NCBI GenBank assembly: GCA_001564275.1
Contig: LKND01000004.1
Coordinates: 2,419 to 66,418 of the forward strand
Reading direction: 5' to 3'
Length of the DNA stretch: 64,000 nt
From: Natrialbaceae archaeon Tc-Br11_E2g14
GTDB lineage: Archaea; Halobacteriota; Halobacteria; Halobacteriales; Natrialbaceae
Shown: piece after piece, positions 4,837-45,652 of the stretch
Layout: each line of letters opens with the position of its first letter
How positions within the stretch are numbered: position 1 is the stretch's first letter
Notes under the pieces: model-generated
Told to the model about the DNA's origin: nothing
The model's database searches: none
Seen by the model: the letters and a program-made list of their open reading frames with translations, nothing else
Made by a program: the position numbers and the translations under genes

Positions 4837-5574
4837 ATGAAGTGTCGCCAGTGCGGATTCTCGCTCGAGAAACCCGGCGATTACTGTCTGGTCTGTGATG
4901 CCGGAAACACCGACGCCGTGGTGCTCGAGGCGGCCCGCGACCGGGCGACGCTGACGATGCTCGGCGACGAGACCGTCCTGGGGGAGACGACCGTCACGAC
5001 GGCCCCCGAAGAGGGTGATCTCGAGGTGGTTGAACTCCGGAATTTCGCCGGACTGGTCGGCGACGAACTCCGCCGCAAGCGACCCGACGAGGTGTACGCA
5101 ACCGGTGACAGGAACGTCATCAGACGCGTTCGGGACGACACCCACTACACTTTCTACCGAGTCGCGGACGACGACCCCGTCGAGGCCGTCCTCGAGCGTC
5201 AGGGGACCGAAGCCCTCGACGTCGTCGAGACCGCTCCGGCCGAGAAGATCGGTGGCAGTCACTCGACGCTCATCGGCGGTCGCGCGGGGATGCGTGCGAT
5301 CCAGACCGTTGCGGGTCACCCTCACGTCAAGAAGGTCATCCCCGGCCCGATCGACGCCGGTGGGACGGGATCACAGTCAGGGCTTCGCGCGAAAGTGACG
5401 AGAGCCGACAGCGGCGGCAACGTTCGGATGCTCCTCCGGGACGGCTCGAGCGTGCAGGAAAATCGGATCGTGACCACCGCACGCGATCGAACACTCGGGG
5501 AGGTCATCCGCGAGGATTTAAACGACAGCCTTACCGAGGCGGGGTTCGCCGACTCCAGCGATGGTAACAACTGA
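4837..5574 (+). CDS. Zn-ribbon plus DUF2103-like protein
   Basis: N-terminal CRQC...CLVC; C-terminal EKIGGSHST...[12 protein letters not shown] segment. Confidence 0.75.
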
Positions 5575-5678
5575 AACGGTTGACATCCTCACAGCGATCG
5601 GCTCAGAACCGGTGCCGGACCGGTTCTATGCCATGGTATCGTGAAGGTGTATACAGTGACGTTCGGTGGTTACTGTCC
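5559..5678 (+). mobile_element. Palindromic MITE-like repeat, copy 1
   Basis: Aligns by eye with 26803-26919, 30413-30531 and 45530-45652; central AGAACCGG...CCGGTTCT hairpin; degenerate ends GATGGTAAC...GTTACTGTC. Confidence 0.75.
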
Positions 5679-5729
5679 CCACCCGAACTCAACACCTTTA
5701 TCAAATCGCCGGGAATAGAGAGCGGTACT

Positions 5730-5999
5730 ATGGCCGAAAAGCAGCGAGGACGGGTCGGCAGCGCCGGCCGCTTCGGAGCACGGTACGGACGCGTCGCCCG
5801 CCGACGCGTCAACGAGATCGAACACGACATGCGCACGTCGAAGGTCGATGGTGACGACGTCAAGCGCATCGGAACGGGCATCTGGAAGAACGAAGAGACG
5901 GGCGAGGTCTTCACCGGCGGTGCTTACCGGCCGGAGACGCCAGCGGGCAAGACCGTCCGTCGCTCGATCCGCGCCGCCCTGGGCGAGGACGGCGAATAG
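5730..5999 (+). CDS. rpl37ae: 50S ribosomal protein L37ae/eL43, cysteine-free form
   Basis: [13 protein letters not shown] and [11 protein letters not shown] motifs; first gene of the conserved operon. Confidence 0.95.
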
Positions 6000-6038
6000 A
6001 CCGATAAACATACCCGCCACCAACCCAACGCTCGACAC

Positions 6039-6173
6039 ATGAGCTACAAGTGCTCCCGATGTAAACGCGACGTACAACTCGACGAGTACGGGGGCGTCCG
6101 CTGTCCGTACTGTGGACACCGCGTGCTCCTGAAAGAGCGGAGCCGCGACGTCAAGACCGTCTCCGTCGACTAG
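6039..6173 (+). CDS. rpoP: RNA polymerase subunit P (Rpo12)
   Basis: Manual translation [44 protein letters not shown]; too short for the ORF track. Confidence 0.95.
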
Positions 6174-6185
6174 CGACTGTTTTCC

Positions 6186-6518
6186 GTGTTTCCACACGAC
6201 GCGAGCCTCGAGTTCGCCTACGACCGATGCTCTAAGGCGGCGGTGATCGAACGCGCCGTCGTCCGCGAGGTCGGTGAGATCGAGGACGACCGTTCGCGGA
6301 CCACGGTTTGTCGGGATGACGGGGTGCTCACCCTCGAGGTCCACGCCCGTGATCTGACCGCGCTCCGTGCGGCCTGTAACACCTGGTGTACGCTGGTCGA
6401 GGTGGCCGAACGGACGGCAATCGCTGGCGAGAGGTACACGATCGACGGCGCCTCGAGTTCATCCGAACCGGCCGGCGAGATCCAGTTGGATCGAGACACG
6501 TCCATCAGCGATGGCTGA
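6186..6518 (+). CDS. pcc1: KEOPS complex subunit Pcc1
   Basis: LEVHARDLTALRAACNTW motif and position after rpoP. Confidence 0.85.
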   Translation: MFPHDASLEFAYDRCSKAAVIERAVVREVGEIEDDRSRTTVCRDDGVLTLEVHARDLTALRAACNTWCTLVEVAERTAIAGERYTIDGASSSSEPAGEIQLDRDTSISDG

Positions 6519-7269
6519 GGAACTCGGCGATCGGATCGTCAGCGGGGCAGACACCGTCCGGGCACGCTGGCAACTCACGCCCTCGAACGCTCGGTTCCTC
6601 CACGCGCATCTCACCCTGACGTGGGGTATTTCGGGTGGCATCCTCGCACTCCTTCTCGGCGGTGCCACGGGACTGGCCCTCGACACAGGCGAGGTGGCGG
6701 TTGCGGGGGGTGTCCCGGGACTGATCGCCGTCGCAACCCTCGCCGGCATCGCGCTCCTGTTGTCACTGTTTCCCCTTCTCCTCGGGTCGAGACGGGGTCG
6801 CCAGTTACTACGCTTGCGAGCGCCGGAACCGACCGATCCTGGACGATCGTCACTCGAGCACCTGTCCCTCGGGTGGCTGGTCGCGACGGCTACCCTTGGC
6901 GGACTGGTCCACGCGGGTGGGTTCGCCGTCGTCGTCGGCGCCGGATTGTCTGCCTTCGCCTATCTGTTGCCCCTCGGCGTGGTCTACCTCGTTCTCGTGG
7001 CGACCCGCTGGTGGCTGCCCACGGCGGGCACGCTTCGTGGCGATCGGCTCACGGTCAGATCGTTCCCACGGGACGGCCAACCGGGACGGGGTTGGTACGG
7101 CCAACTCGAGACCGTGGCCACCGTCCAAATGGCGTCCCTGACCGATGTTCGCTCCGTCACCGTCGGCGACGTCTCGCTCGTCGCTCTCGAGCACACCGAC
7201 GGGGCGCCGGTCGTGGCGGCCGTCCCAACTGGGGTTCGCGACCAGCTCGAGGCCGACCTGCGCGAATGA
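6511..7269 (+). CDS. Hypothetical multi-pass membrane protein
   Basis: About four hydrophobic segments and a soluble C-terminus; overlaps the pcc1 stop. Confidence 0.65.
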   Translation: MAEELGDRIVSGADTVRARWQLTPSNARFLHAHLTLTWGISGGILALLLGGATGLALDTGEVAVAGGVPGLIAVATLAGIALLLSLFPLLLGSRRGRQLLRLRAPEPTDPGRSSLEHLSLGWLVATATLGGLVHAGGFAVVVGAGLSAFAYLLPLGVVYLVLVATRWWLPTAGTLRGDRLTVRSFPRDGQPGRGWYGQLETVATVQMASLTDVRSVTVGDVSLVALEHTDGAPVVAAVPTGVRDQLEADLRE

Positions 7270-7384
7270 CCCGAGCGGGCACGGATAGCGATCACAAACA
7301 GGTGTGGACAATCCCCGTGCGGCGACGACCAGCCGACGGGACACAAAGCTTGGCTTTATCAGTCCGGAGGGCGACCGTCGAGAT

Positions 7385-7777
7385 ATGCAGGGCAATTTGC
7401 CGCCGGAAGCACAGGAGAAAATCGAACAGCTGCAGGAGCTCCAGGAGACGGCCCAGACGGTCGCCGTCCAGAAGCAGGAAGCCGAGTCGACGCTGAACGA
7501 CGCTCAGGCCGCCCTCGAGGAACTCGAAGACGTCGACGCGGACACTACGATGTACCGGCAGGTCGGCGAACTGTTCGTCCAGACAGAGTACGACGAGGCC
7601 GAAGCACAGCTCGGGGAGAAAGTCGACACCCTCGAGATCCGACTCGAGACCCTCGAGAAACAGGAAGCGCGCGTCCAGGATCAGTTCGAGAGCCTGCAGG
7701 ACGAACTGCAGAACATGCTCGGCGGCGGTATGGGTGGCCCGGCCGGTCCTGGCGGGCCCGGTGCCGGCGGCGCGTAA
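7385..7777 (+). CDS. pfdB: Prefoldin beta subunit
   Basis: [12 protein letters not shown]...[10 protein letters not shown], coiled coils and Gly-rich tail. Confidence 0.95.
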
Positions 7778-8041
7778 ATGGCTCCCGCGGACGCCCCGGA
7801 CCCGACCGACGAAACGGTCGTGCAAACGGCGGCTGACGCCGCCGAGGACGTCATCTTCGACACCTACAAACAATCGGCCGTCCGGGATTACGACGTCACC
7901 GTAATCTTCGAAGACGGGACGCTCGAGGTCGACGTCTACCTCAACGCGCCGGCCGACGCCGCGGATCGATCCCCCGAGGCGGTGGCCGATGCGGCGGCAC
8001 TCGCCGCCCGATCGGCCGTCGACGAGCTATTCGACGAGTGA
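7778..8041 (+). CDS. DUF3194-like protein
   Basis: DYDVTVIFEDGTLEVDVYL; abuts pfdB as in other haloarchaea. Confidence 0.75.
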   Translation: MAPADAPDPTDETVVQTAADAAEDVIFDTYKQSAVRDYDVTVIFEDGTLEVDVYLNAPADAADRSPEAVADAAALAARSAVDELFDE

Positions 8042-8110
8042 ACATCACCGTCTCCGTCGGTGCAGCCTCGAACGACAACACTTACCCACCAGCCAGTGTG
8101 AAAATCGGGT

Positions 8111-8944
8111 ATGGCAACGAGCGACTGGGGAGACTGGCTCCCAAACGCGATCGAATCGGCCGATCCCGATGGTGTAGCTATCTGGTACCTCGGGTGTAAC
8201 GGGGTCGTCCTCAAGGGATCTGCGGGAACGACGATCTACGTCGATCCGTACGTCGGCCTCGGCGATCCCCCGCGGACGGTCCGAATGATTCCCGTTCCCT
8301 TCGACCCGGCGGATGTCGGCCATGCTGACGCCGTGTTCGCAACCCACGAACACACCGATCACGTCCACGGCCCGAGTCAGGCACCGATTCTCGCCGAATC
8401 GAACGCCGACCTGTATGCCCCCGACGACAGCCTCGCGGTCGCCCGCGAGGAGGAAGCCTGGACCGAGAACTGGGCCGTCACCGACGACCAGTTCGTCGAG
8501 GTCGGCGAGGGCGACACCCTCGAGATCGGCGAGTTCACCGTTTACGTGGAATCCGCCCACGACCCCGACGCCACCCACCCCGTGAGCTACGTCTTCGAGC
8601 ACGACTCGGCAACCGTCTTCCACGGCGGCGACACCAAACCCACCGACGAGTTCGAGCGAATCGGCCGGACGTACGACATCGATCTCGGGATTCTCGCCTT
8701 CGGCACTGTCGGGAACGTTCCGGACAAAGAAACCGGCGAGCCCACGCGGACCCGCTGGTACAACGACGAAAATCAGATCGTCGAGTGCGCGTCAGCCCTG
8801 CAACTCGAGGCGCTCGTCCCGAGCCACTGGGACATGTGGCGGGGACTCACGAGCGACCCGAAGGTGCTGCATCACCACGCCAAGAGCTTCCAGTATCCCG
8901 AGCGACTCGAGCTGGTCGAGATCGGCGACCGCCTCGATTGCTGA
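8111..8944 (+). CDS. MBL-fold metallo-hydrolase (UlaG-like)
   Basis: THEHTDHVH, FHGGD and PSHWD metal-binding motifs. Confidence 0.85.
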   Translation: MATSDWGDWLPNAIESADPDGVAIWYLGCNGVVLKGSAGTTIYVDPYVGLGDPPRTVRMIPVPFDPADVGHADAVFATHEHTDHVHGPSQAPILAESNADLYAPDDSLAVAREEEAWTENWAVTDDQFVEVGEGDTLEIGEFTVYVESAHDPDATHPVSYVFEHDSATVFHGGDTKPTDEFERIGRTYDIDLGILAFGTVGNVPDKETGEPTRTRWYNDENQIVECASALQLEALVPSHWDMWRGLTSDPKVLHHHAKSFQYPERLELVEIGDRLDC

Positions 8945-9092
8945 ACCGGGTTACGGTAAATCAGTCGACGTCACCGAACACTGGTGGGGGTTGTCTCCCC
9001 ACTGGGCTACGGCCTGTATCGACCGATAGACCCCACGGGGACACACTGGCGGTGCCGTTCGTTTTAAGGTAATGCTTGGTTAACGGTTCGTC

Positions 9093-10895
9093 ATGAGCGA
9101 CAGCGCGGAGGCAAGTGACGTCGTCGAGGTAGCCGACGACGGGGTGGTGGTAACGAAGACGTACACAGCAGACGAGTTTCCAGTCCCGGCCATCAGGTTC
9201 GAATTCGAGTCAGAACACGAGGGCTCGGTTGACGTTCGGGTGGCCGAGGACATTCCGGAGTCGTTCCCGATGGATAGCGTCGGCTTTCATCCGGAGTACC
9301 ACAGCGACCAGTGGACGGCCTTCCAAGACAACCACGTGGAGTTCACGGGGACGGTCGATCCCGACGAGACGCTGGTGACAGTCTACGGCGTTCGTCTGGA
9401 AGACGACACCGAACCCGACATGTTCCTCTCGGAGCCCACAGTGACGGTGCTCACCGAGGATGGCGACGACGGTTCGGAGGCCGAAGCCACCGACGACGAA
9501 CTCGAGGAAACCATGATCGACGACATCGCCGGTGAGGACGGTAACCAGGCGGTCAAGGACATGCTCTCCGGGGCGACTGACTCGGTTCCAGGGCTCGAGG
9601 AGGATACTCCCCGTGAGGCCGACACCGAAGCAGGTGAAGGTGGAACCGCCGAGACCGGCGAAGCGGATCTCAACCTCGAGTTCGACGAGGACGAGGTGGA
9701 CGACGGTGCTGTGACCGAGGCCGACGATGGGGATGACGCCACATCGGCGGAAGTCCCGGCCGACTCGTCGGCGGACGAAGCCGACGCTAACGACCCTGTC
9801 CTCGATGCGGACGAGGAACTCGATCTCGACCTCGGCGACGTCGACACGGAGCCCACGCCGGTCGATGAGGAATCGGAAGCCGACGACGACGCGCCGGACA
9901 TCGACCTGGGCTTCGAGGAGGACGAACTTCCGGAGCCCGAAGCCGCCGAGACCGACGAGAGCGAGACGGCCAGCGCAGACGCCGAGACCGACGAGACCGA
10001 CGAGACCGACGAGACCGACGCACCCAAAATCGAACTCGACCTCGAGGCAGCAGCCGAGAGCACTGACGTCGGTGGGGACGATGGTGAGCACGCGGAGAGT
10101 GGATCGGAAACCGATGACGACCCCGACGCCGAGGTGGATGCGGAGCCAGCAGACGTGAAAGCGCCAGACGAGGTCGACACGGACACCCCCGAGTCCCCAG
10201 CAAGCCCCGGCGAGGTGACCGTGGCCGACGGATCGATCGTCGAGGCCCTTGCCGGGGAGATTCGATCGGGCGACGTCGACGAGGCGTCGCTCACGACCCT
10301 CCGTTCGGCACTCGAGAGCGAAGAGGACGCCGAGGGCGACGCTCCGGTCATCGCCAGAGTCGATCACCTGCAATCTCGGGTCGAGGAGATCGCCGCCTAC
10401 ACTGGCGCACTCGAGGAATTCCTGATGGAATCGGGAACGGGCGCGCAGGTCATCGAATCGGTCGAGGGTGGTCTCGAGGCCGTTGAGACCGAACTCGACG
10501 ACGTCGTCGAACGGCTCGAGGCGACCGAGTCGGGACTCGAGGCGACCGACGATCGGTTCGCCACCCTCGAGGAAACGACCGAGTCACTCGAGGACGACGT
10601 GGAGGCGGTTGACGAGCAGGTGTCAGCCGTCGAAACGGAGCTCGAGGGGGTCACCGAGGACCTGGCTGGTGTGACCGAAGACGTCGAAACGACGACCGAC
10701 GACCTGGACGAGCGCGTCGAAGACGTCGCCGAGACGGTCGGCTCGATCGACGACGACGTGCAGTCGGTCGCCGGTGACGTCGAGGCCCTCGAGGACGACG
10801 TCGAGACCCTGGAGGACGATCTCACGTCGGTGCGCGAGGACGTCGTCGACATCGTCGAGTGGCGCGACGAGCTCGGCTCGATGTTCAGCGGCTGA
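9093..10895 (+). CDS. Very acidic protein: N-terminal beta domain, D/E-rich linker, C-terminal coiled coil
   Basis: 600-aa ORF with typical codon usage; heptad repeats in the last ~180 aa; no signal peptide or TM segment seen. Confidence 0.75.
   Translation: MSDSAEASDVVEVADDGVVVTKTYTADEFPVPAIRFEFESEHEGSVDVRVAEDIPESFPMDSVGFHPEYHSDQWTAFQDNHVEFTGTVDPDETLVTVYGVRLEDDTEPDMFLSEPTVTVLTEDGDDGSEAEATDDELEETMIDDIAGEDGNQAVKDMLSGATDSVPGLEEDTPREADTEAGEGGTAETGEADLNLEFDEDEVDDGAVTEADDGDDATSAEVPADSSADEADANDPVLDADEELDLDLGDVDTEPTPVDEESEADDDAPDIDLGFEEDELPEPEAAETDESETASADAETDETDETDETDAPKIELDLEAAAESTDVGGDDGEHAESGSETDDDPDAEVDAEPADVKAPDEVDTDTPESPASPGEVTVADGSIVEALAGEIRSGDVDEASLTTLRSALESEEDAEGDAPVIARVDHLQSRVEEIAAYTGALEEFLMESGTGAQVIESVEGGLEAVETELDDVVERLEATESGLEATDDRFATLEETTESLEDDVEAVDEQVSAVETELEGVTEDLAGVTEDVETTTDDLDERVEDVAETVGSIDDDVQSVAGDVEALEDDVETLEDDLTSVREDVVDIVEWRDELGSMFSG
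9984..10019 (+). repeat. In-frame 9-bp tandem repeat (GAGACCGAC)x4 encoding (ETD)4
   Basis: Read directly from the sequence. Confidence 0.9.
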
Positions 10896-11010
10896 CTCAG
10901 TCGGTTTTCTGGGGGTGAATCACTCGGAATACAGCGACTGACTCGACGAACAGTCTCGAGTGCCGCCGAGAACGCAACGGGTTTACTCGTCGGTCGACCA
11001 CCTTCGCTCG

Positions 11011-11967: not shown

Positions 11968-12012
11968 GCGCCGCGATTTGGACACGCTCGCTGAAGAGAC
12001 CCTGTGGCCCGC

Positions 12013-14652: not shown

Positions 14653-14879
14653 GCAGGGCGTGAGTTGGCCGATCGGCATCGCGGGTCGGCTGCGTTGAGT
14701 GACATTTACAAGAATTTATTGCCGCTTTTCGGCACGAGACTGCGGCTCATCACTTATAAAAAGCCCGCGTTTCGCTGTGGAGAACAGGTCCAAAATGCAA
14801 TACGGTAACGCGTTCACCCTCCCGCTAGCCAAAAGGTTTATTAAATAGTACCGGTTTTGTCGTGATAGACAGTGAGAAT

Positions 14880-16241
14880 ATGCCACGGAAGAATACAATG
14901 TACGGACGACGGCGCGTGTTGATCGGCGGCGCATCGGCAGGGACGCTCGCGCTCGCAGGCTGTATTGGAACGGGCGATCCAGAGGAGGACGACGATGAAG
15001 GGACCGGTGACGATACGGACGACGACAGCAACGGCGAGGACGTCGAAATGGCCGATCAGATCGACGTCTGGGGCTGGGACGTTGCCGCGCGGTCACTCGA
15101 GTTGACCGCCGACGCCTACATGGAGGAATACGACGCCACCGTGGATGTCGAGGAGTTCGGTCAGGACGCGATGAAGGAAGACCTTCGCAGTCGTCTCACC
15201 GCCGGATCGGGGGCACCCGACGTGGCGATGCTCGAGATGATCGACGGCCCGGCCGAAATCGACACGGGCGCCGTCGCGGACCTCACCGATCGAATCGACG
15301 ACGCGGGCATCGAAGACGACTTCGTCAGTGGAGCCTGGGCCTCCCTGCAGGAAGATGGGGCGACCTACGCGATCCCGTGGGACATCGGCCCGACCGCCGT
15401 CTACTACAGACGCGACATTTACGAGGACCACGGGCTGGACGCCGACGCCATCGAGACCTGGGATGACTTCCAGGAAGAGGGTGAAAAGCTGCCCGACGAC
15501 ATCGCGATGTTCAACATCCCGGTGAACGACCTCGACGGCGTCTGGCGCTTCCAGTTCCGTCAACTCGGCAACCGGCCGTTCACCGAGGACGGCGAGGTGA
15601 ACATTCACAACGACGACTCCGTGATGATCGCGGAGACGATCAAACAACTGTACGATAGCGGCATCGCCTCGGACTACGACGGCTGGTCGACGGAGTGGTT
15701 CAATGGCTACGGCGAGGGTGAGATCGCCTCGCTGCCCTCGGCCGCCTGGATGGAGGGGACCCTTCGAGCCGAACTGCCGGACACCGCCGGTAACTGGGGC
15801 GTCTACCGAATCCCTGCCCACGAAGCGGGTGGCCCTCGCGCCTCGAACTGGGGCGGCTCGAGCCTCATGATTCCCGAACAGATCGAGGACGGCGAGCGCG
15901 AACGCGCCTGGGATTACCTCACGTGGTCGCTGGCGACCGAAGAGATGCAGCTGCTCATGTACGACGAGTACGGGCTCTTCCCGGCACTCGAGACGACCTA
16001 CGACAACGACGAGGTGTTCGACGAGGAACTGGACTTCTACGACGGCCAGCCGGCTCGGCGACTGTTCGCGGACGTCGCCGAGGAGATGCCCGAGTACCAG
16101 TTCTCCATCGACACGCCGTACGTCTCGGATGCGATCAACAACCACCTCTTCCGGATGCTCCGCGACGACGAGGATCCCGAGGAGATGGTGATGGAAGCCG
16201 CCGAGGAAGTCGCCGAACGAACCGGTAGAGACTTGGCCTGA
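14880..16241 (+). CDS. Sugar ABC transporter substrate-binding lipoprotein (Tat)
   Basis: RRR twin-arginine signal with LAGC lipobox; GSGAPDV, YAIPWD and SNWGGS CUT1-type motifs. Start could be 14862-14898. Confidence 0.9.
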   Translation: MPRKNTMYGRRRVLIGGASAGTLALAGCIGTGDPEEDDDEGTGDDTDDDSNGEDVEMADQIDVWGWDVAARSLELTADAYMEEYDATVDVEEFGQDAMKEDLRSRLTAGSGAPDVAMLEMIDGPAEIDTGAVADLTDRIDDAGIEDDFVSGAWASLQEDGATYAIPWDIGPTAVYYRRDIYEDHGLDADAIETWDDFQEEGEKLPDDIAMFNIPVNDLDGVWRFQFRQLGNRPFTEDGEVNIHNDDSVMIAETIKQLYDSGIASDYDGWSTEWFNGYGEGEIASLPSAAWMEGTLRAELPDTAGNWGVYRIPAHEAGGPRASNWGGSSLMIPEQIEDGERERAWDYLTWSLATEEMQLLMYDEYGLFPALETTYDNDEVFDEELDFYDGQPARRLFADVAEEMPEYQFSIDTPYVSDAINNHLFRMLRDDEDPEEMVMEAAEEVAERTGRDLA

Positions 16242-16280
16242 GCGGAGACAGGTTCTGCTCACCCGTTATTCAGAATTTCA

Positions 16281-17285
16281 ATGGCAACGAAACGCTCACG
16301 TGACGACCACCTGGTGCTCTGGGATCGGTTCCGCTACGCACGCCAGCGGCTCACCGCCGTCGCCCCGTCGGTGACGAAGTCCCAGGTGGCGTACCTACTC
16401 ATTTCGCCGTTTTTCGTGTTGTTCGGGTTGTTCTTGCTCTTCCCCGTCGTGTACACGGTGTATCTTTCGTTTTTCGAGTACCAGGGGATTGGACAGGGCA
16501 ACCTGTTTTACGTCGACTTCGGGCTCTTCCACATTACGTTCCCACAGATCGCAGAGCTGCAGTTTGTCGGTCTCGGGAACTACACGCGGATGCTCGGTGA
16601 CAGCCTGTTCTGGCAGTCGATGTACAACACCACGTACATCCTGGTGATCCAGGTCCCGATCATGATCGGCCTGGCGCTCGCGCTCGCGATCGCGCTGAAC
16701 GCGAGTTTCGTCCGATTCAAGGGCGCCTTCAGGACGGCGATTGCACTGCCAGTCTCGGCGAACATCGTCGCTTACTCGACGATATTCCTCATCCTGTTCA
16801 ACGAGACCGGGTTCATCAACTACCTGCTGAGCCAGGTCGGCATCGAGCCGATCTCGTGGCTGCGCAGTGAGTTCTGGGCTCGAAAGACCATCATCGGCGC
16901 TGTCACCTGGCGATGGACCGGCTACAACATGATCATCCTGCTTGCGGGCCTGCAGAACATCCCCCAACAGCTGTACGAGGCCGCCGAGATCGACGGCGCA
17001 AGTCGCTGGGAGAAGTTCCGCTATGTGACCGTCCCCCAGCTGCGGCCGGTCCTGTTGTTCGTGGTCGTCCTCTCGACGATCGGGACGTTCAAGCTGTTCG
17101 CCGAACCCTACGTCATCACCGACGGCGGGCCGACGAACGCGACGATCACCATCGTCCAGTACATCTACGAGGAGGCGTTCGTTGGCAGCCCCAACCTCGG
17201 GTACGCAAGCGCCCTGACGGTCATCTTCGTGGCCATCGTCAGCGCGATCTCCATCGCCCAGATCAAACTTGGGGGTGAGGAGTGA
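16281..17285 (+). CDS. Carbohydrate ABC transporter permease
   Basis: TM helices and the EAA loop LYEAAEIDGA. Confidence 0.92.
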   Translation: MATKRSRDDHLVLWDRFRYARQRLTAVAPSVTKSQVAYLLISPFFVLFGLFLLFPVVYTVYLSFFEYQGIGQGNLFYVDFGLFHITFPQIAELQFVGLGNYTRMLGDSLFWQSMYNTTYILVIQVPIMIGLALALAIALNASFVRFKGAFRTAIALPVSANIVAYSTIFLILFNETGFINYLLSQVGIEPISWLRSEFWARKTIIGAVTWRWTGYNMIILLAGLQNIPQQLYEAAEIDGASRWEKFRYVTVPQLRPVLLFVVVLSTIGTFKLFAEPYVITDGGPTNATITIVQYIYEEAFVGSPNLGYASALTVIFVAIVSAISIAQIKLGGEE

Positions 17286-20438: not shown

Positions 20439-20439
20439 G

Positions 20440-26802: not shown

Positions 26803-26919
26803 CTATAGTAGCCACTGAGTGACATTGCACACACCCTCACGATACCATGGCGCAAAACCGGTGACAAACCGGTTCTGAGGCGTCTCGGAGGGTATAATTC
26901 GGTTCAGTTGTTACTCTAG
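26803..26919 (-). mobile_element. Palindromic MITE-like repeat, copy 2
   Basis: CTATAGTAGCCA...GTTACTCTAG; its reverse complement is close to the copy at 30413. Confidence 0.8.
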
Positions 26920-26925: not shown

Positions 26926-28278
26926 TTAGCGATCGAGTTTTCCCGCGAGTACCTTTGAAGCGGTGAGAATTGGATCCCAAACAGGACTAAACGGGGGTGC
27001 GTACGCCAGATCGAGGTTCTGGAGTTCGGAGACGGTTACCCCGGTCGTCACGGCGGTCGCAACCGTATCGATGCGCTTTGTGCCCTCGCGGCCAACAACA
27101 CTCCCACCCAATACGCGTTCGGTCTCTCGGTCGGCAACCAGTGTGACAGTGAGATCCGTTGCACCGGGATAGTAATGGGGCCGCGTCGGTGTTTCGATAG
27201 TCACATCGATCGGGTCGAAACCTGCCTCGCGGGCACGATCCAAATCGATTATGCCAGTTCGTGCCGCACCCATTTCGAACGCCTTGACGATCGCCGTGCC
27301 AGCCGTACCGCCGGTTGGGGTCGGGTCACCGGCGACGGTGCTTCCGATGGCCCGACCGGCGCGGTTTGCGGTCAACGCCAGGGGGACGTGATCTGGTTCG
27401 CCGGTCACGACGTTCGTGTCTTCGGCGCAGTCCCCAGCAGCGTAGATGTCCGTGACGTTCGTTTGGCCGTACTCGTCGGTCGCAATCGCACCCGTCGGCC
27501 CAAGTTCGATCCCGGCTTCCACGGCAAGTTCGACGGTGGGCTCGACGCCAACACCGACGATGACGAGATCCGCTGGCACCGCGGGCCCGTCCCCGAGTTC
27601 GACCGATTCGACCGCGTCCCCGCCAGCGAATCCCTCGACGGCAGTCTCGAGGTGGAGTTCGACACCCGCTTCGCTGAGGTGGTCCTCGATGATGCGGGCC
27701 GTCGCGTTGCCGAACGGTTGGAGGACGTGTGGGAGCATTTCGAAGATCGAGACGTGAATGTCGCGGTTGATGAGCGCTTCGGCCATCTCGATACCGACGT
27801 AGCCTCCCCCGACGATCGCCGCTGTTTCGGGGTCTCGACTCGAGATGTACGCCTCGATCGCTTTCGCTTCGTGCATCCCCCTGAGCGTAAACACGCCCTC
27901 GAGGTCGATCCCATCGAACGGCGGTTCGATCGCACGAGCGCCAGTCGCGAGCAGAAGATCGCCGTATGGCTGGTCGAACCGTTCGTCGTTCGTCTCGACG
28001 GTGACGGTCTCGGTCCCGGGATCGATCGCGACGACCTCGTGGCCCGTTCGGAGGTCGACGTCGCGGTCCTCGCGGAACGCCTCGGGAGTCACGGCGACGA
28101 GGTCCTCGAGGTTCTCGACGGTCCCCTTCACGTAGTAGGGCATCCCACAGGCCGCATACGAGACCCATTTCCCCTTCTCGAAAACGATCACGTCCCGGTC
28201 CGGGTCCTCGCGCTTTGCCTTACTCGCGGCGCTCATTCCGGCTGCGTCTCCGCCAACGATGACGAACGGTGCTGCCAT
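26926..28278 (-). CDS. CoA-disulfide reductase / NADH oxidase family flavoprotein
   Basis: GGDAAG, SYAACGMPY (redox Cys), GGGYVG, YAAGD and DLAYAPPFS. Confidence 0.88.
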   Translation of the reverse strand: MAAPFVIVGGDAAGMSAASKAKREDPDRDVIVFEKGKWVSYAACGMPYYVKGTVENLEDLVAVTPEAFREDRDVDLRTGHEVVAIDPGTETVTVETNDERFDQPYGDLLLATGARAIEPPFDGIDLEGVFTLRGMHEAKAIEAYISSRDPETAAIVGGGYVGIEMAEALINRDIHVSIFEMLPHVLQPFGNATARIIEDHLSEAGVELHLETAVEGFAGGDAVESVELGDGPAVPADLVIVGVGVEPTVELAVEAGIELGPTGAIATDEYGQTNVTDIYAAGDCAEDTNVVTGEPDHVPLALTANRAGRAIGSTVAGDPTPTGGTAGTAIVKAFEMGAARTGIIDLDRAREAGFDPIDVTIETPTRPHYYPGATDLTVTLVADRETERVLGGSVVGREGTKRIDTVATAVTTGVTVSELQNLDLAYAPPFSPVWDPILTASKVLAGKLDR

Positions 28279-29012: not shown

Positions 29013-30278
29013 ATGTCCAGACCCGGATTTTCGCCCGAAATACCTCGGGAACGGCTGGTCGAGACGGCACTCGACCTCGTCGCCTTCGATACGTCGAATC
29101 CGCCCGGCGACACCCGCAAAATCGTCGACTGGATCGAATCGGCACTCACCGACCTCGGCCTCGATACCCAACGGGTGGCGACTGATCCGACGAAACCGAA
29201 CCTGCTTGCGACGCTTCCCGGCGAGGGAACGACGACGCTGCTTTACAGCGGACACCTCGATACGGTTCCATACGATCAGGACGGCTGGTCGTACGACCCG
29301 CTCGGCGAGCGCGTCGGTGAACGGCTCTATGGCAGAGGGACGACTGATATGAAAGGCGGCGTTGCCGCAATGATCGAACTCGCCCGGGCGTACACCGTTG
29401 CCGATCGACGCCCGCCGGTGACACTCGAGTTTGCGTTCGTCAGCGACGAGGAAGTTGCCGGCGAGGCTGGACTACAGGCGGTACTCGACGCAGGTCGGCT
29501 CGTGGCCGACGCCTGCGTGGTCGGCGAACCGACGGGCACCCTCGATACGCCGTCGATCACTGTCGCGGACAAGGGCAGTCTCTGGCTCACACTTGAGGCG
29601 ACCGGTGACGCGGCCCACGGCTCGCGGCCAATGCGCGGCACCAACGCGATCGATGTGCTCTGGGAGGCCCTCGAAACGATTCGGGATCGACTCCGAGACT
29701 ATCCCCTCACAGTCCCCGACGCGGTCGATCCGATTCTCGAGGAGTCGGTCGACTACTACAGCACGTCGATGAACGAAGCGGTGGCTCGACGGCTGTTCGA
29801 CAGACCGACGGTCAACCTCGGCACGATCGACGGTGGGGAGACGATAAACAGCGTCCCACGGTTTGCTCGCGCGGAACTCGACGTTCGACTTCCTCCAGGA
29901 GTCGAAACGAACGCTGTGCTCGGGGACGTCAGGAAGTGGCTCCAGGGGCACGCAGCGACCTCCATCGCCGACGTCAGCTGGAGCATTGGAACGTACGAAC
30001 GGCCCAAATCGCCGCTCGTGGACGCGACGACAGCCGCAGCAACCACGGTCCTCGACGGCCAGATTCACCGACGCAGCGCGACTGGGGGTGGCGATGCGAA
30101 GCGGCTGCGCAACGCTTGCATACCTACGGTGGAGTTCGCAATCGGGTCCGATACGGTTCACGCCTGTGACGAGTACACGACAGTCGAGGCCCTCGAGGCG
30201 ACGGCAGCGGTGTACGCACGTCTCCCGAATGCGCTCACGGATCGTCACGTCGACGAGCCACGACCCCAAATCGAGTAG
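29013..30278 (+). CDS. M20/ArgE-DapE family metallopeptidase
   Basis: GHLDTVP, GRGTTDMKGG, DEE, GEPT and HACDE. Confidence 0.9.
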   Translation: MSRPGFSPEIPRERLVETALDLVAFDTSNPPGDTRKIVDWIESALTDLGLDTQRVATDPTKPNLLATLPGEGTTTLLYSGHLDTVPYDQDGWSYDPLGERVGERLYGRGTTDMKGGVAAMIELARAYTVADRRPPVTLEFAFVSDEEVAGEAGLQAVLDAGRLVADACVVGEPTGTLDTPSITVADKGSLWLTLEATGDAAHGSRPMRGTNAIDVLWEALETIRDRLRDYPLTVPDAVDPILEESVDYYSTSMNEAVARRLFDRPTVNLGTIDGGETINSVPRFARAELDVRLPPGVETNAVLGDVRKWLQGHAATSIADVSWSIGTYERPKSPLVDATTAAATTVLDGQIHRRSATGGGDAKRLRNACIPTVEFAIGSDTVHACDEYTTVEALEATAAVYARLPNALTDRHVDEPRPQIE

Positions 30279-30412
30279 CCATCGAAAGTCGCTGCATACC
30301 TGATCGCCAGACGTATCACCATCAATGGGTGACCCTTCCAGTTCACACTGTAGGTCGAGAGCGTCGCTACCGAAGTGAGTACGCGAACGCGCAATCGAAC
30401 GCCACTCGTTGC

Positions 30413-30531
30413 CTATAGTAACAAGTGAACCGAGTCACACACCCTTCGAGTCGCCTCAGAACCGATTTGTCACCGGTTTTGCGCCATGGTATCGTGAGGG
30501 TGTATGCAATGACGTCCAGTGGCTACGACAG
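30413..30531 (+). mobile_element. Palindromic MITE-like repeat, copy 3
   Basis: CTATAGTAACAAGTGAACCG...CAGTGGCTACGACAG. Confidence 0.8.
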
Positions 30532-36896: not shown

Positions 36897-37101
36897 AATA
36901 GTGACCTCGACGCCATTCGTGAAAACTGCTTGGGTTCGTTTTTTTCGCCCATATCACCGCCGATTGGGGCTCTCTTGCCCGATCCGTGGGGGACAGTGAC
37001 GCACAAAAAACTGTCTCGTGGGCGGGAGTGTCTGCTCGGTTGAAAATTCGAGTTCGACTGCGATCAACAATGGGCCGGAGGGTGGCCCGGAAACACCTTC
37101 G

Positions 37102-38505: not shown

Positions 38506-38524
38506 ACACAGCGTCGACCGCGAG

Positions 38525-40842: not shown

Positions 40843-40942
40843 GCCTTTCAATCAGCAGGTCGAAAGGATAAAACTGCGGGTTATCGACACACGAAACCGC
40901 CGTGCGTACGGCGATCGTGGGTGGCCCGCCCTCGCTGGCCGG

Positions 40943-41200
40943 TCACGCTCCCTGGTGATCGTCGTACGCCTCAGGAGTGTACGTCGACAACTCCAGTGCG
41001 TGGATATCCGTCGTCATATGCTCGCCGAGGGCGTCGTACACCAGCTGGTGTTGCTGGACCAGCGGGAGTCCCTCGAAGGCGGGCGAGATGACCGTCGCGG
41101 TGAGGTGGTCGTCGTCGTGTTCGCCGCGGGCCCGGGCGACGGTTGCGGTCGCGTCCTCGAGTGCCGATTCGATGAGTGCCTCGACTTCGTCGGTGTCCAT
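40943..41200 (-). CDS. BolA family protein
   Basis: SPAFEGLPLVQQHQLVYDAL...IHALEL. Confidence 0.9.
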   Translation of the reverse strand: MDTDEVEALIESALEDATATVARARGEHDDDHLTATVISPAFEGLPLVQQHQLVYDALGEHMTTDIHALELSTYTPEAYDDHQGA

Positions 41201-41296
41201 ACCGACTCGTTGTAGGAGAACTGGCAAAACGTCGCCGGTTCGTCACGCAACTGTTCGTGCGGAACCCGTCGACCCCCTCGGTGACGTAGCTCGGGC

Positions 41297-42109
41297 TCAG
41301 CGGCGGACCGGCACGCCCCGATCCGCGAGGTACGCCTTGGTCTCCTCGATCGAGTACTCTCCGAAGTGAAAGATTGAGGCTGCGAGCCCGGCGTCTGCGT
41401 CTGCCTCGGTGAACACCTCGTACATGTCTTCGGGGCCCCCACAGCCCGAGGAGGCGATCACCGGCGTGTCCACAGCGTCGGTGATCGCCCGCATGAGTGG
41501 TATATCGTAGCCGTCTTTGGTCCCGTCGGCGTCGATGGAGTTGACGAACAACTCCCCCGCTCCGCGGGATTCGGCCTCGCTCGCCCAGGTGACCGCGTCG
41601 ATGCCCGTGCCCTCGCGACCACCCTTCTTCGTGCACTCGAACCAGCACGGCTCGCCGTCGATCTCGACGATGTGGTCACCATCCTCGTCGTACCGCCGGC
41701 GAGCGTCCACGCTGATGACGATGCACTGACTCCCGAAGGCGCGTGCCCCCTCGTTGATGAGCTCGGGGCGCTCGAGGGCTCCGGTCGTGATCGATACCTT
41801 GTCGGCCCCCGCGCGAAGCGTCTCGCGGATATCCTCGACGGTGCGGATGCCGCCGCCGACGGTGAGCGGAATAAAGACCTCGTCGGCGACCTGTTCGACG
41901 ACCGAGAGCATCGTTTCTCGTCCGTCCGCCGAGGCGGTGATGTCGAGGAAGACGAACTCGTCGGCCCCCGATTCGTTGTACGCCTTGGCCATCGCCACCG
42001 GATCGCCCGTGTACTCCAGGTCTTCGAAGTTGACGCCAGTGTAGACGGCGGGGGTTCCGTCCTCGTCGACGTCGACGTCGATACACGGTATAATGCGCTT
42101 GGTGAGCAT
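41297..42109 (-). CDS. hisF: Imidazole glycerol phosphate synthase cyclase subunit
   Basis: [26 protein letters not shown] and AASIFH. Confidence 0.95.
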
Positions 42110-42256
42110 CTGTACAGCAGTTGGGGGCACCGTCGCTTGACCGTTTCGACAGCGACGCCCACAGGAGCGCCCAATGCGGGACAATCCTCGAGCGGCGAGC
42201 GCCTCGCAGCTTCTTCTAACCAAAACTACAGGTGCTCGCGAGCCGAGAATCGGGAC

Positions 42257-43843
42257 ATGTCACGGACGAGTGGATCCCGAATCGTCGAGGAGACGACGCT
42301 CGAGCGCGAACGCCTCGAACAACTCGCCGCTCGCATCGAGGCTGGCGACGAGAGACCGTCGCTCGAGGTTCGGACCCCGTTCACCGACGAACCGGTCGGG
42401 TCGATCCCGGCCTGTACGCCCGACGACGTCGCGGGCGTGGTCGACCGTGCTCGGTCGGCCCAGGCCGACTGGGGACGGGCGACGGTCGACCAGCGGGCGG
42501 CGATCCTCGAGCGAGTTGGCGACCTCGTATTGAATCGCCGTGGGGAGTTGCTCGACGTGGTGCAACTCGAAACGGGGAAATCCCGCCACCACGCTCTCGA
42601 GGAGGTACTCGACGTTCCGCTAACATGTTCGTACTACGCGTCGAACGGGGCCGCGATACTCGCGGACGCGGACCGGTCGGGTGCGATGCCCCTGGTCTCG
42701 GATGCGACGGTCACCTACGATCCCGTCGGTGTCGTCGGCGTGATCTCTCCCTGGAACTACCCATTGACGCTTGCGATGACCGACGCGATCCCTGCCCTGC
42801 TCGCTGGCAACGCCGTCGTCTGTAAACCCGACGAGCGCACGTCGTATATCGCGCTGGCGCTCGCGGACCTCTTCGAGCAGGCCGGGCTCCCGGAAGACCT
42901 CTTCCAGATCGTAACCGGAAACGGAGCGACGGTCGGTCCCGCGCTGCTCGACGAAGTCGACCACGTGGCCTTTACCGGCGGCACCGAGACGGGCCGGACG
43001 GTCGCCGAGCAGGCCGGTCGGAACCTGATCGACTGCTCGCTCGAACTCGGCGGGAAGAACCCGATGCTCGTCCTCGACGACGCCGACACCGAGACGGCGG
43101 CTCGCGGCGCGGCCAAGGGTGCGTTCACCAACGCAGGGCAACTCTGTCTCGCTCCCGAACGGATCTACGTCGACGAACGACGGTACGACGGGTTCGTGGA
43201 CGCCTTCGTCGGCGCCACGCGGCGTCTCGAGTGCGGCCTCGAGTTCGACTACGGCCCCGATGTCGGCTCGCTGATCGACGGCGATCACCTCGACGTCGTC
43301 CGCGGGCACGTCGAGAGCGCAGTCGCGGACGGTGCATCGCTGCTCTCGGGTGGCCGTGCTCGTCCCGATATCGGCCCGTTCTGTTACGAACCGACGATTC
43401 TGACCGACGTCGACCCTGACTCGCGGGTCGCCTGCGAGGAGACGTTCGGTCCCGTCGTCTCCGTCTACCCGGTCTCGGGCGTCGAGGAAGCGATCGAGCG
43501 GGCGAACGACTCCGAGTACGGATTGAACGCCAGCGTCTGGACGAGCGACCGCGAGCGCGGTCGGGCGGTCGCCCGCAAGATCGACTGTGGCACCGTCTGT
43601 GTCAACGACCCATACACCGTCGGCTGGGCGGCGACGGACGCCCCCATGGGCGGCTTTGGCGACTCGGGACTCGGCCGCCGTCACGGTCCCGAGGGACTCC
43701 GGCGATACGTCGACACCCGGACGATCGCGACCTCGCGAATCGGCCCGCTCGACGCACCGCCGGGCGTCTCGCCGCACTGGTTCGCACGCTTCATGATCGG
43801 ACTGACGAAGGTACAACGCCGACTCACCAGGTGGTTGCCGTGA
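42257..43843 (+). CDS. NAD(P)-dependent aldehyde dehydrogenase (SSADH-like)
   Basis: [22 protein letters not shown] and EETFGP. Confidence 0.92.
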
Positions 43844-44919
43844 GCGACGGCGCGGTTTTCCTCACGGGCTATCCTGGCTTTCTCGGCTCAGCACTGCTCG
43901 AGCGCGTCCTCGCCCGCGGCGACGGGCCGGTCGCCTGTCTGGTCCAGCCCAGGTACCTCGAGACCGCACGCCGGCGAGCGCGGGAGATTACCGCCGGAAT
44001 CGACGGGGTCACCGACGACGCGGTTCGGCTCTACGAGGGCGACATTACCGAACCCGACCTCGGACTGTGCGAAGGGTCCCTCGAGAGCGTTCGCGAACTC
44101 TACCACCTCGCGGCGGTCTACGACCTCGCCGTCGACCGCGAGCTGGCGGAAGCGGTCAACGTCCGGGGCACCAAACACGTCCTCGAGTTTGCCGCGGACC
44201 GCGAGGTGGATCGGTTCCACTACGTCAGCACCTGTTACGTCAGCGGTCGGTACGATGGCGTGTTCACCGAGGATCACTTGCAGGAGGGACAGACGTTCAA
44301 CAACCACTACGAGGAAACCAAGTACCGTGCGGAGGTCGCGGTTCAGGATCGAATAGCGGCCGGCCTGCCCGCGACGATCTACCGACCCGCCATCGTCGTC
44401 GGCGACAGCCGGACGGGCGAGACCGACAAGTACGACGGCCCCTACTATCTGCTCCGTCTGTTGTTGACCCAACCAGCGTGGCTCTCGGTGACGTTCACGC
44501 TGCCGGGCTCGAGCAACGCCGAAGTGAACGTCGTTCCCAGCGACTACGTCGTCGACGCAATTGCCCACCTCAGCGCCCGCGAGGGGACCTGCGGCGAGGT
44601 CTATCAGCTCTGTGATCCCACGCCGTTGCCCGTCGGGCGGTTCGTCGACGTTCTCGCCGAGGCCGTCGGCCATCGCACTGTCACGCTGCCGACGACGAAA
44701 CCGATCGCCCGAGCGGTATCGAACCGGCTCTCGTCGTCGCTGCCGCTCGAACCCGCAACCCTCGACTACCTCGACCAGCCGACGCGGTACGCCTGTCCGA
44801 AGACGCGGCGAGCACTCGAGGGAAGCGGGATCCAGGTCCCACCGTTCGAGTCCTACGTCGATCGGCTCGTCGACTATGTACTCGAGAATCCAGTCGTCCG
44901 CGACGGGCCGATGGTCTAG
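43840..44919 (+). CDS. Extended SDR (thioester/fatty-acyl-CoA-reductase-like NAD-binding domain)
   Basis: LTGYPGFLG, YVST, YEETK and IYRPAIVVG; GTGA overlap with the ALDH gene. Confidence 0.85.
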   Translation: MSDGAVFLTGYPGFLGSALLERVLARGDGPVACLVQPRYLETARRRAREITAGIDGVTDDAVRLYEGDITEPDLGLCEGSLESVRELYHLAAVYDLAVDRELAEAVNVRGTKHVLEFAADREVDRFHYVSTCYVSGRYDGVFTEDHLQEGQTFNNHYEETKYRAEVAVQDRIAAGLPATIYRPAIVVGDSRTGETDKYDGPYYLLRLLLTQPAWLSVTFTLPGSSNAEVNVVPSDYVVDAIAHLSAREGTCGEVYQLCDPTPLPVGRFVDVLAEAVGHRTVTLPTTKPIARAVSNRLSSSLPLEPATLDYLDQPTRYACPKTRRALEGSGIQVPPFESYVDRLVDYVLENPVVRDGPMV

Positions 44920-45134
44920 CTGGAGTGTCGAGGGACGCTACGGACGTGAATGTGCAATTACTAATCTGTTGTGAGCCGCCTCGGGATCGAGCCCCGAGGC
45001 ACTCGGCGTGTCTTTCCTGTAGAGGTCACCAGAGCCGATACTCGGGATAGTGTTGCCCGGGTTCGGGACCCCCTCGAGCAGGCCCCATGGTGGCGATAGC
45101 AGCGTTTAAGTCGCCCAGTTCGAAACGTCCGTGT

Positions 45135-45320
45135 ATGGTAGCAGATACGGACGATGGCCACGGCGATGACGCGGCGGTCCCGGAAGGCGACGACCCGGCT
45201 GCAACACGGACGACTGCCCCGATGAGTGAGTTCAGCGTTCGCGACGCCGCCTTCGGCTTCGTCGTGATGGTGGTCGGTGTCGTCCTGACGTTCGGTGTGC
45301 CTCTAGCCGTCTCCTTCTGA
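45135..45320 (+). CDS. Small single-TM haloarchaeal protein
   Basis: RTTAPMSEF followed by a hydrophobic C-terminal helix; TTTAA TATA box upstream. Confidence 0.65.
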   Translation: MVADTDDGHGDDAAVPEGDDPAATRTTAPMSEFSVRDAAFGFVVMVVGVVLTFGVPLAVSF

Positions 45321-45529
45321 CCGAATCGTCGTATCGTCCCAACCGAGACGGGTCGCAGTCGGTTGTTGCCCGTGATTGTCGACCCAGTTTGGGTACCCCT
45401 CGGGAAGCAAGGATACTCACCCGCGTGAACCGAATCGGCGAGCGTGCCAGCTCGGAAACGGCGAAAACTCGATGATGAGCCAGGTGTCGTAGAGGGAGGC
45501 TCGATGACGTTGGTGGCGTCGGTACACAA

Positions 45530-45652
45530 CTATAGTACCAAATGAAACGATTTACACACCCTCACAGCGAGTCGGCTCAGAACCGGTTTGTGACCGGTTC
45601 TGCGCCGTGGTCTCGTGAAGGTGCGTGCAATGACGCTCAGTGGTTACCATAG
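45530..45652 (+). mobile_element. Palindromic MITE-like repeat, copy 4
   Basis: CTATAGTACCA...TGGTTACCATAG; central CAGAACCGG-N7-CCGGTTCTG. Confidence 0.8.

Follow-up and report, generated by a model that had tools for sequence, protein, structure and literature searches.

Correia elements of Neisseria (CREE/NEMIS) are palindromic MITEs of 100 to 155 bp with TATAG... ends and a TA duplication, and they occur in hundreds of intergenic copies. Their effects on promoters, IHF binding and RNase III are documented; we know of no transposase for them. MITEEc1/ERIC and RUP are likewise small, TA-flanked palindromes in bacterial hosts, placed in the IS630 class by ISfinder. Some MITEs are cross-mobilized by IS630/Tc1-mariner transposases with little shared beyond the terminal nucleotides; plant Stowaway elements belong to this type, and SM1 from Sulfolobus solfataricus is its archaeal instance. 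Among the haloarchaeal insertion sequence (IS) classes, we take ISH16 to be the IS630-family class. In a census of prokaryotic MITEs, MITEEc1_IS630 was the commonest ISfinder match (PMC11602168). The haloarchaeal MITEs in the ISfinder catalogue, namely MITEHsal1-14, ISH2 and the MITEHwa series, are noncoding, transposon derived and classed by the homology of their termini to IS (PMC7002104, PMC3119063). The listed MITEs of Halobacterium fall into the ISH4, ISH8, ISH9 and ISH11 classes, with none in ISH16 (PMC7002104).

The window that we analyzed, a 64,000-nucleotide stretch of contig LKND01000004.1 from Natrialbaceae archaeon Tc-Br11_E2g14, contains repeats which are very probably copies of a nonautonomous MITE of the TA-targeting IS630/Tc1-mariner type. 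The four repeats described by a first-pass annotation are present at the positions and on the strands claimed for them (Table 1) and align with one another over their whole length. A degenerate core pattern of 43 nt matches exactly these four copies, with 0 matches expected from 100 shuffles. The unit consists of two long inverted ends (TAGTAACAAYTGAAACG... / ...CGTTCAGTGGCTACTA) with a short palindromic core between them. It shares the TATAG end and the architecture with Correia, ERIC and RUP, whereas those elements have bacterial hosts and the sequences of MITEEc1/ERIC and RUP appear unrelated to it; the likeness to Correia and ERIC would thus be an analogy of architecture rather than membership. 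SM1 and Stowaway belong to other lineages and have other sequences, and the Halobacterium MITEs have duplications of 5 to 7 bp or longer, in contrast to what is probably TA only in the elements studied here.

Table 1. Repeats in the window and component parts of copy 4
Feature	Positions	Strand	Description
Copy 1	5559-5678	+	123-bp subfamily; ends decayed (CGATGG...TACTGTCC)
Copy 2	26803-26919	-	CTAGAG...CTATAG; convergent genes on either side
Fifth element	30270-30353	-	Decayed 84-bp copy of the 86-bp sister subfamily, GATCGCC-type core; 86-bp profile, 38 bits
Copy 3	30413-30531	+	CTATAG...CGACAG
Copy 4	45530-45652	+	CTATAG...CCATAG; best preserved of the window copies
Copy 4, left terminal inverted repeat	45530-45549	+	C-TA-TAGTACCAAATGAAACG; sequence and family boundary profile
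Copy 4, right terminal inverted repeat	45633-45652	+	ACGCTCAGTGGTTACCA-TA-G; sequence and family boundary profile
Copy 4, inner stem-loop	45574-45606	+	GGCTCAGAACCGG / loop TTTGTGA / CCGGTTCTGCGCC

The window copies sit close to the ends of genes. A 269-amino-acid gene (4765-5574) upstream of copy 1 runs into the element and stops at its TGA, with the tail SDGNN before the stop, and a gap of 52 bp separates the copy from the gene for ribosomal protein L37Ae. Copy 2 starts 7 bp past the stop of a 450-amino-acid pyridine-nucleotide disulfide oxidoreductase gene (26926-28278, minus strand). Copy 3 has an M20 peptidase gene 135 bp upstream and a class-V aminotransferase gene about 300 bp downstream, while copy 4 is flanked by convergent small genes (45135-45320, plus strand; 45924-46136, minus strand). 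A fifth element, overlooked at first pass, lies 59 bp ahead of copy 3, and the M20 peptidase open reading frame (29013-30278) stops at a TAG (30276-30278) that falls within the terminal repeat of this element.

The host genome is a 3.16-Mb draft, 91% complete and metagenome assembled in appearance, from the GTDB genus of Natronosalvus (Natrialbaceae). The element had been supposed to be abundant, and a profile built from the four copies indeed recovered 143 distinct loci in this genome, including 119 that are close to full length; at least 38 further loci with the common termini bring the total to at least 181, or about 0.6% of the genome as estimated from locus count and element lengths. Subfamilies of 123, ~88, 86 and 165 bp have their ends in common, the ~88-bp forms being deletion derivatives without the 33-bp inner stem-loop module. 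With lengths of 84 to 165 bp, inverted ends of about 20 to 30 nt, no coding capacity and many copies, the elements have the features of short MITEs (<300 bp). The copies in the host genome are 70 to 97% identical to the consensus (median, ~90%). Our search of the literature found no description of this MITE family, which is an ordinary sort of selfish DNA and leaves the understanding of MITEs unchanged.

In the family profile, the ends read C-TA-TAGTA...TACTA-TA-G. TA is present at both ends, preceded by C in 80% and followed by G in 71% of the copies, and conservation drops from 80-90% inside the element to background beyond C-TA...TA-G. The flanks show a weak palindromic preference (A-G-C/TA...TA/G-C-T), and of 92 elements in other genera, 60 likewise have C...G flanks. 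Beyond the TA, no direct repeat as long as 3 bp was found, matches between flanking 3- to 8-mers being at the shuffled expectation; we therefore rejected a MITE of the IS classes with 3- to 9-bp duplications (ISH4, ISH8, ISH9, ISH11). Eleven genes read into an element (C/TAT AGT AAC AAT TGA or ...AGC CAC TGA) and acquire MITE-encoded tails, YSNN or YSSH followed by a stop. When flank, TA and flank are joined, an in-frame TAA or TAG comes back in 9 of 9 evaluable cases, and for each of the two genes tested, the stop codon of the orthologues aligns exactly to the TA of the element. The ends, the flanks and the restored stops thus agree with the TA duplication in CTAG proposed at first pass and are consistent with insertion at TA, often within CTAG, although the evidence for the duplication is indirect because no base-precise empty site was recovered from the same species.

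Transposition would begin with a transposase supplied in trans that recognizes the MITE ends. The element would then be cut out and pasted at a TA, preferably in C-TA-G (weakly AGCTAGCT), so that TA would stand on both sides; this cut-and-paste chemistry is inferred, as is the family to which the transposase belongs. CTAG is depleted in the host genome to 0.31 of its Markov expectation, and TAG and TAA stop codons would offer TA targets there. On a stop codon, the element would contribute a four-codon tail (YSNN or YSSH) closed by a TGA of its own, and insertions within genes would presumably be purged. The scarcity of CTAG, the TA offered by stops and the purging of genic insertions would together explain why copies gather between genes (142 of 143 loci are intergenic) and often on stop codons. 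The family thus offers a clean archaeal case of a TA/CTAG-targeting MITE in a genome where CTAG is strongly depleted, with stop codons as insertion sites; annotated stop codons are shifted in at least 11 genes.

The site of copy 1 exists in filled and empty versions: in five congeners (G002, G004, G005, G006 and G007) it is uninterrupted and lacks the element. This comes from a search of a 9.6-kb concatenate of joined flanks, representing 16 loci, against 10 congeners, in which spanning alignments were obtained for copy 1 only; the other loci gave none because intergenic DNA is too diverged between the species. At the same site, 1.45 kb of extra DNA in G009 and G010 was considered as a possible IS and, as read in G010, consists of two ordinary small genes. 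Within the host genome, a BLAST search with the joined 60- plus 60-bp flanks of 119 copies spanned no junction and revealed no paralogous empty site. Where sites are filled in relatives, the gene ends align to the host genome and the spacers do not. Contigs of the same species that match the host genome come from soda-lake metagenomes. Those at copies 2 to 4 and at a young copy on C56 were found by exact protein match of the neighbors. Copies 2 and 3 are in all the same-species metagenome contigs examined and copy 4 is in 10 of 10; we found no polymorphism at these three or at the C56 copy, since the contigs either carry the element or break inside it. The checked copies are fixed in the sampled soda-lake population. 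Around Orc1/Cdc6, among 80 metagenome loci, elements were seen on one same-species contig only, and synteny is lost against the 80-89% relatives.

As first reported, the window encodes no transposase, and IS630 (DDE_3) is also absent from the whole 91%-complete assembly, including its ISNpe3-like form. A survey of 793 kb of MITE-rich loci yielded no transposase-encoding element of 0.3 to 4 kb between MITE termini; a 919-bp pair of termini at L239, considered as a full-length IS, proved to be a chance pairing beside a 301-bp variant and contains no transposase. Sister genomes contain IS630-family elements of 1059 bp with two overlapping open reading frames, matching plasmid copies annotated as ISNpe3 family. 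These end in C-TA-TAGTAGTCGTTAGAA...CTACTA-TA-G or TA-TAGTAACCG... and resemble the MITE in the outer 8 to 10 nt and the flanks. In relatives, the likeness of IS630 termini to those of the MITE is confined to these outer 8 to 10 nt, and the full termini are matched by none of the elements found. ISNpe3-like elements occur in Halovalidus salilacus and other Natrialbaceae and are annotated on Haloferax, Natrinema and Natribaculum plasmids. They are about 1.06 kb long and carry a two-ORF DDE transposase, whereas the MITE is noncoding; the outermost nucleotides are alike (TA-TAGTAG and TA-TAGTAAC), as are the TA flanks, mostly within C...G, but the inner terminal repeat reads GTTAGAA... in the former and AAYTGAAACGATT... 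in the latter. Judging from these ends, ISNpe3-like insertion sequences are the likely partner type of the MITE.

The family is found well beyond its host, with matches in 16 of 41 relatives. Its termini also turn up in Haloarcula, Halomicrobium and Halostella plasmids, and over their 30 nt they show 93 to 100% conservation among Natrialbaceae, Haloarcula and Halomicrobium. One IMG/VR contig carries a solo terminus, which was set aside as an incomplete element. DDE_3 is absent from 8 of the 13 relatives that bear MITE termini, and the presence of the MITE and that of IS630 are uncorrelated.

The consensus folds into one long, very stable hairpin (RNA, -65.2 kcal/mol, z = -9.4; DNA, z = -8.4), and the host might retain the elements, or a subset of them, as structured RNA, such as 3'-UTR hairpins that stabilize or terminate transcripts. 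The first-pass annotation had suggested an mRNA 3' hairpin of this kind, having noted that every copy is 3' of a co-oriented gene. That placement is correct for the four window copies, and across the genome co-orientation is weakly in excess (66:40) once tandem loci are counted together with convergent ones; convergent-gene spacers are also somewhat enriched, with 29% of the loci against 19% of intergenic regions. However, the placement does not extend to the genome at large: divergent gene pairs enclose 34 of the 143 loci, on the promoter side, and the orientation relative to the upstream gene in tandem contexts alone (40:25) is not significant. Targeting of TA and stop codons accounts for the enrichment at gene ends. 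Furthermore, the two strands fold equally well (-65.2 versus -66.9 kcal/mol), the element contains no run of T, and Rfam gave 0 matches both at the gathering score and at E ≤ 1. Within the genome the stems decay uncompensated, with 385 one-sided pair breaks against 17 compensatory changes and 28% of single changes in host-genome copies keeping the pairing, all as raw counts that carry no chance expectation. Neither the curated match nor the host-selected compensation expected of a structured noncoding RNA family was found, the suggested mRNA hairpin is left unsupported, and we judge a host-maintained RNA very improbable.

Covariation is seen only between subfamilies across genera. The 86-bp form has, in its central stem, 106 cells with changes on both sides, where shuffles give 37 and none of 500 gets to 106, and one position takes the pair types CG, UA and GC. 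This strong compensation, together with an inner loop that occurs in both orientations among the copies and is compatible with a hairpin intermediate, would suit a mobile palindrome moved by an unrecognized transposase or by a hairpin/single-strand mechanism, its IS630-like outer nucleotides being convergent. The same could be said of the missing cognate IS630 and the uncorrelated presence of DDE_3; yet orphan MITEs that outlive their partner are common, and arm-to-arm covariation is also expected if the arms are binding sites of one coevolving transposase. Moreover, the TA flanks in CTAG, the TAGT-type ends and the lack of a longer duplication make up an IS630/Tc1 signature that bona fide IS630 copies in the sister genomes have in common with the MITE. 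Such an alternative route of mobility therefore seems very improbable to us. There are two levels of constraint, palindromy being kept between subfamilies across genera and decaying freely in resident copies, and the covariation fits a constraint on mobile master copies. As a probable IS630/Tc1-mariner-type MITE, the family in the host genome looks like an orphan whose copies are decaying neutrally. Given ends of 30 nt that stay 93 to 100% identical from Natrialbaceae to Haloarcula, and modular palindromic cores whose pairing survives through compensation, the superfamily of termini might be something other than the remains of a lost IS630, with an unlinked enzyme or a hairpin-dependent mechanism maintaining it and carrying it among haloarchaea. 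This is unlikely; were it true, insertion on stop codons would make the superfamily a systematic remodeler of protein C termini (YSNN/YSSH) and of 3' ends.

The consensus is of use for annotating Natrialbaceae and Haloarculaceae genomes. The family also interrupts assembly from short reads, with Logan and ENA contigs ending within copies and short Logan contigs breaking inside copy 3.

All four elements that the first-pass annotation had placed in the window were recovered at their positions (see the table) and align end to end, and a 43-nt degenerate core pattern matched exactly these four copies, with none expected by chance. A fifth element had been overlooked; the TAG stop of an M20-peptidase gene falls within it. 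The claim of an abundant element held well beyond the window: a profile of the four copies identified 143 distinct loci (~45 per Mb) in the source genome (3.16 Mb in 136 contigs, 91% complete; the window is C79:2419-66418), 119 of them near full length. Two main size classes were apparent, one of ~123 bp, with the consensus CTATAGTAACAATTGAAACGATTTACACACCCTCACAGCGAGTCGGCTCAGAACCGGTTTGTCACCGGTTCTGAGCCATGGTATCGTGAGGGTGTGTGCAATGACGTTCAGTGGCTACTATAG, and one of ~88 bp that is without the 33-bp inner stem-loop. The 123-bp copies are 70-97% identical to their consensus (median, ~90%). The youngest copies in the genome are those at C41:10486-10608, C42:28636-28757, and C103:16816-16937. Another 38 loci came from a profile for an 86-bp subfamily, whose core differs (..ACACACTGATCGCCGACTCGTCTGGCGATCAGGTGTG..), so that at least 181 elements have common termini. 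In variants of 301 and 148 bp from other Natrialbaceae (L239 and L150), the ends and stem surround unrelated inserts, indicating that the interior is modular. Separately, a 123-bp element on contig C129, outside the window, is interrupted after ~25 nt by an unrelated ~430-bp insert with its own hairpins; this insert may itself be a small mobile element that went into the MITE.

Coordinates of the MITE copies, their variants and associated features (unprefixed, window; C, contig of the source genome; L, locus from another genome or contig)
Feature	Location	Strand	Remark
Copy 1	5559-5678	+	
Copy 2	26803-26919	-	
Copy 3	30413-30531	+	
Copy 4	45530-45652	+	
Fifth element	30270-30353	-	Decayed 84-bp copy of the sister subfamily (86-bp profile match)
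Central loop of copy 1	5613-5619		7 nt; opposite in orientation to that of copy 4, relative to the asymmetric arms
Central loop of copy 4	45587-45593		7 nt
Codon-usage ORF	5628-5999	+	123 aa; window 5580-5999
165-bp variant	C61:3346-3510		Ends as in the MITE family
Interrupted element	C129:75342-75882		
301-bp variant	L239:4353-4653		
Element with similar right flank	C31:10586-10710		
Orc1/Cdc6 region	C103:14498-16939		Gene at 14693-16303, minus strand
Viral terminus	L242:869-886		Contig IMGVR_UViG_3300021856_000254
~67-bp repeat family	C133:40868-40934		
~67-bp repeat family	C13:2676-2742		
~67-bp repeat family	C72:36653-36714		
~67-bp repeat family	C28:27813-27884		~20 more in the source genome
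~67-bp repeat family	L008:1594-1660		Natronosalvus amylolyticus

The boundary profile in the source genome shows 80-90% conservation from C-T-A-T-A-G... to ...C-T-A-T-A-G and background level directly beyond. Direct repeats of 3-8 bp beyond the TA were not above shuffled expectation, which excludes IS families with longer duplications. The flank preference is weak and symmetric (A-G-C/TA ... TA/G-C-T, with slashes at the boundaries) and looks like a target preference as opposed to element sequence; C...G flanks also occur in 60 of 92 elements of other Natrialbaceae. CTAG itself is strongly depleted in the source genome, at 0.31 of Markov and ~7% of mononucleotide expectation; of its 763 sites, 84 lie on predicted stop codons and 334 fall between genes. 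CTCGAG is very common there (12,223 sites; observed/expected, 1.42).

The best evidence for TA targeting comes from stop-codon junctions. Eleven predicted genes enter an element in frame, as C/TAT AGT AAC AAT TGA or C/TAT AGT AGC CAC TGA, and end in YSNN, YSSH or decayed forms such as the SDGNN at copy 1. When the left flank, TA and the right flank were joined, an in-frame stop codon resulted each time for the nine junctions whose ends are intact (TAA in three, TAG in six). Nine aligned orthologues of a class-III aminotransferase (C133) stop at exactly the residue where the MITE tail starts, ending in ...VSA, ...TTA or ...RSA versus ...LEQ/YSNN on C133, and in a phosphohexomutase (C53) the orthologue's CGG TAA aligns with CGG TA/T. 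Together, these reconstructions and alignments indicate that the element inserted into the TA of a stop codon, and one TA copy with the right flank recreates the original stop. For the CTA-element-TAG insertion put forward in the first-pass annotation, the C-TA...TA-G ends and flanks are as described, and the TA duplication at insertion sites is what we infer, indirectly, from the junctions and orthologues.

An empty orthologous site was sought by comparing a concatenate of joined flanks from 16 loci with ten congeners, and the copy 1 junction proved contiguous in five of them (G002, G004, G005, G006, and G007). In the aligned congener loci, the 120-bp element is absent, and the gene's stop codon coincides with the insertion point, with the L37Ae gene immediately behind it. 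One codon-usage ORF begins within copy 1 and extends, in a different frame, into the L37Ae gene region; it is probably spurious. Spacers of the other loci are too diverged between species for this comparison, and no paralogous empty site was found in the source genome. In same-species contigs, each copy examined is present in each contig, with short assemblies breaking within the element; contigs with identical proteins come from metagenomes of brine and sediment (SL_4KL, SL_6KL, and SL_8KL), which are Kulunda-steppe soda-lake samples, and from assemblies GCA_003554885.1 and GCA_001564315.1. Beside one element on C31, the right-flank 260 bp match DNA of two congeners at 95% and 90% identity, against ~80% for the other genes of these congeners, so that the MITE may adjoin a mobile element exchanged in recent times.

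With our own crude codon-usage caller (2,866 genes, 83% coding), 142 of the 143 loci are intergenic: 41 lie between convergent, 34 between divergent, and 65 between tandem genes, against a background of 19%, 18%, and 63% of intergenic regions, respectively. The observation that all copies lie 3' of a gene and are co-oriented with it holds for the four window copies but amounts genome-wide to at most a weak trend (40:25 in tandem contexts, not significant; 66:40 once pooled with convergent ones). The excess near gene ends can be ascribed to the TA/stop-codon target, with no function needed. On C103, an Orc1/Cdc6 gene has an element on either side, in the spacer upstream of it and directly behind its stop codon; this is a possible replication-origin region colonized by MITEs.

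The long hairpin was reproduced, the consensus forming a single one as RNA (-65.2 kcal/mol; z = -9.4) and a hairpin also as DNA (z = -8.4). A role as an mRNA 3' hairpin nevertheless finds no support, since across 75 copies in the source genome, single stem changes broke pairs in 385 cases versus 148 that kept them, and double changes were compensatory in 17 cases versus 22 that were pair breaking. Stem breaks are thus mostly uncompensated, and the host does not maintain the hairpin fold of resident copies. The window matched no Rfam family at gathering score, nor did the surroundings of copy 4 at an E value of ≤1. By contrast, among 75 distinct 86-bp elements from across genera, the central helix covaries strongly, with CG:40/UA:21/GC:3 at one pair and AU:34/CG:29 at another; 106 cells changed on both sides versus 37 in shuffles, and none of 500 shuffles was as high. 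Such covariation indicates that palindromy is kept in the line of master copies that transpose, either because both arms would be binding sites of one enzyme or because a hairpin intermediate would matter. In the 123-bp form, both orientations of the central loop are present (TTTGTCA, 8, and TGACAAA, 8; TCTATCA, 6, and TGATAGA, 2), which points to template switching or to inversion through a hairpin. A loop flip-flop of this kind is expected when the template is switched within a perfect 14-bp stem.

Besides the source genome, one congener (G006; 84-87% identity) has full-length 123-bp copies, and single diverged ones occur in three other genera; five of the ten congeners yielded no family match. 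The Natronosalvus amylolyticus plasmid NZ_CP101160.1 carries a match at coordinates identical to those of one in G001, which places the source genome in that GTDB genus of the Natrialbaceae. The terminal 30 nt recur at 93-100% identity in the Natrialbaceae Natrialba, Natrarchaeobius, Natronococcus, Natronorubrum, Natronolimnohabitans, Natrinema, Halomontanus, and Halovalidus, and also in Haloarchaeobius and on plasmids of Haloarcula hispanica, Halomicrobium mukohataei, Halostella, and Salinibaculum, where they bound elements of 86 bp; the right terminus in this cross-genus alignment was set by the search pattern, and its conservation there carries no information. Patchy spread with highly conserved termini is typical of mobile DNA. 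One predicted viral contig (L242) holds a single exact 18-nt terminus and no complete element.

The reported lack of a transposase in the window extends to the whole genome, which has no DDE_3 domain and no tblastn match to an IS630 transposase. The relatives have IS630-family elements of 1,059 bp with two overlapping ORFs, which match at the protein level plasmid copies annotated as IS630 or ISNpe3 family. Their ends read C-TA-TAGTAGTCGTTAGAA...TTCTAAC.ACTACTA-TA-G, and those of a second clade TA-TAGTAACCGCTAGAAC. These ends agree with the MITE in the outer 8-10 nt and in the flanks, whereas the inner repeat differs; none of these IS630 elements thus has the ends to be expected of the partner (TAGTAACAAYTGAAACGATT). 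MITE termini and DDE_3 do not go together among 18 relatives (both in 5, MITE only in 8, IS630 only in 2). Among the MITE-rich loci of ~20 species (793 kb), no transposase-encoding element bounded by the MITE termini was found, all but one of the termini pairs being ≤363 bp apart; the exception, a 919-bp pair considered as a full-length IS, is a chance pairing and encodes no transposase. The partner may have been lost, may lie in DNA beyond that sampled, or may be an ISNpe3-like enzyme that works across families. Cross-mobilization across families is known for Stowaway and mariner-like elements.

The MITE resembles Correia elements in architecture, TA flanks, and orphan status, and its class is most likely that of the IS630-type MITEs, which include MITEEc1, RUP, Sulfolobus SM1, and plant Stowaway. 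ISfinder lists haloarchaeal MITEs, of which those known from Halobacterium fall in other IS classes (PMC7002104); a prokaryotic census reports high MITE densities in Halobacteria, with the families undescribed (PMC11602168). Our search of the published literature found no description of this family. A second, unrelated repeat family of ~67 bp, with copies 80-90% identical, is common to the source genome and a congener.
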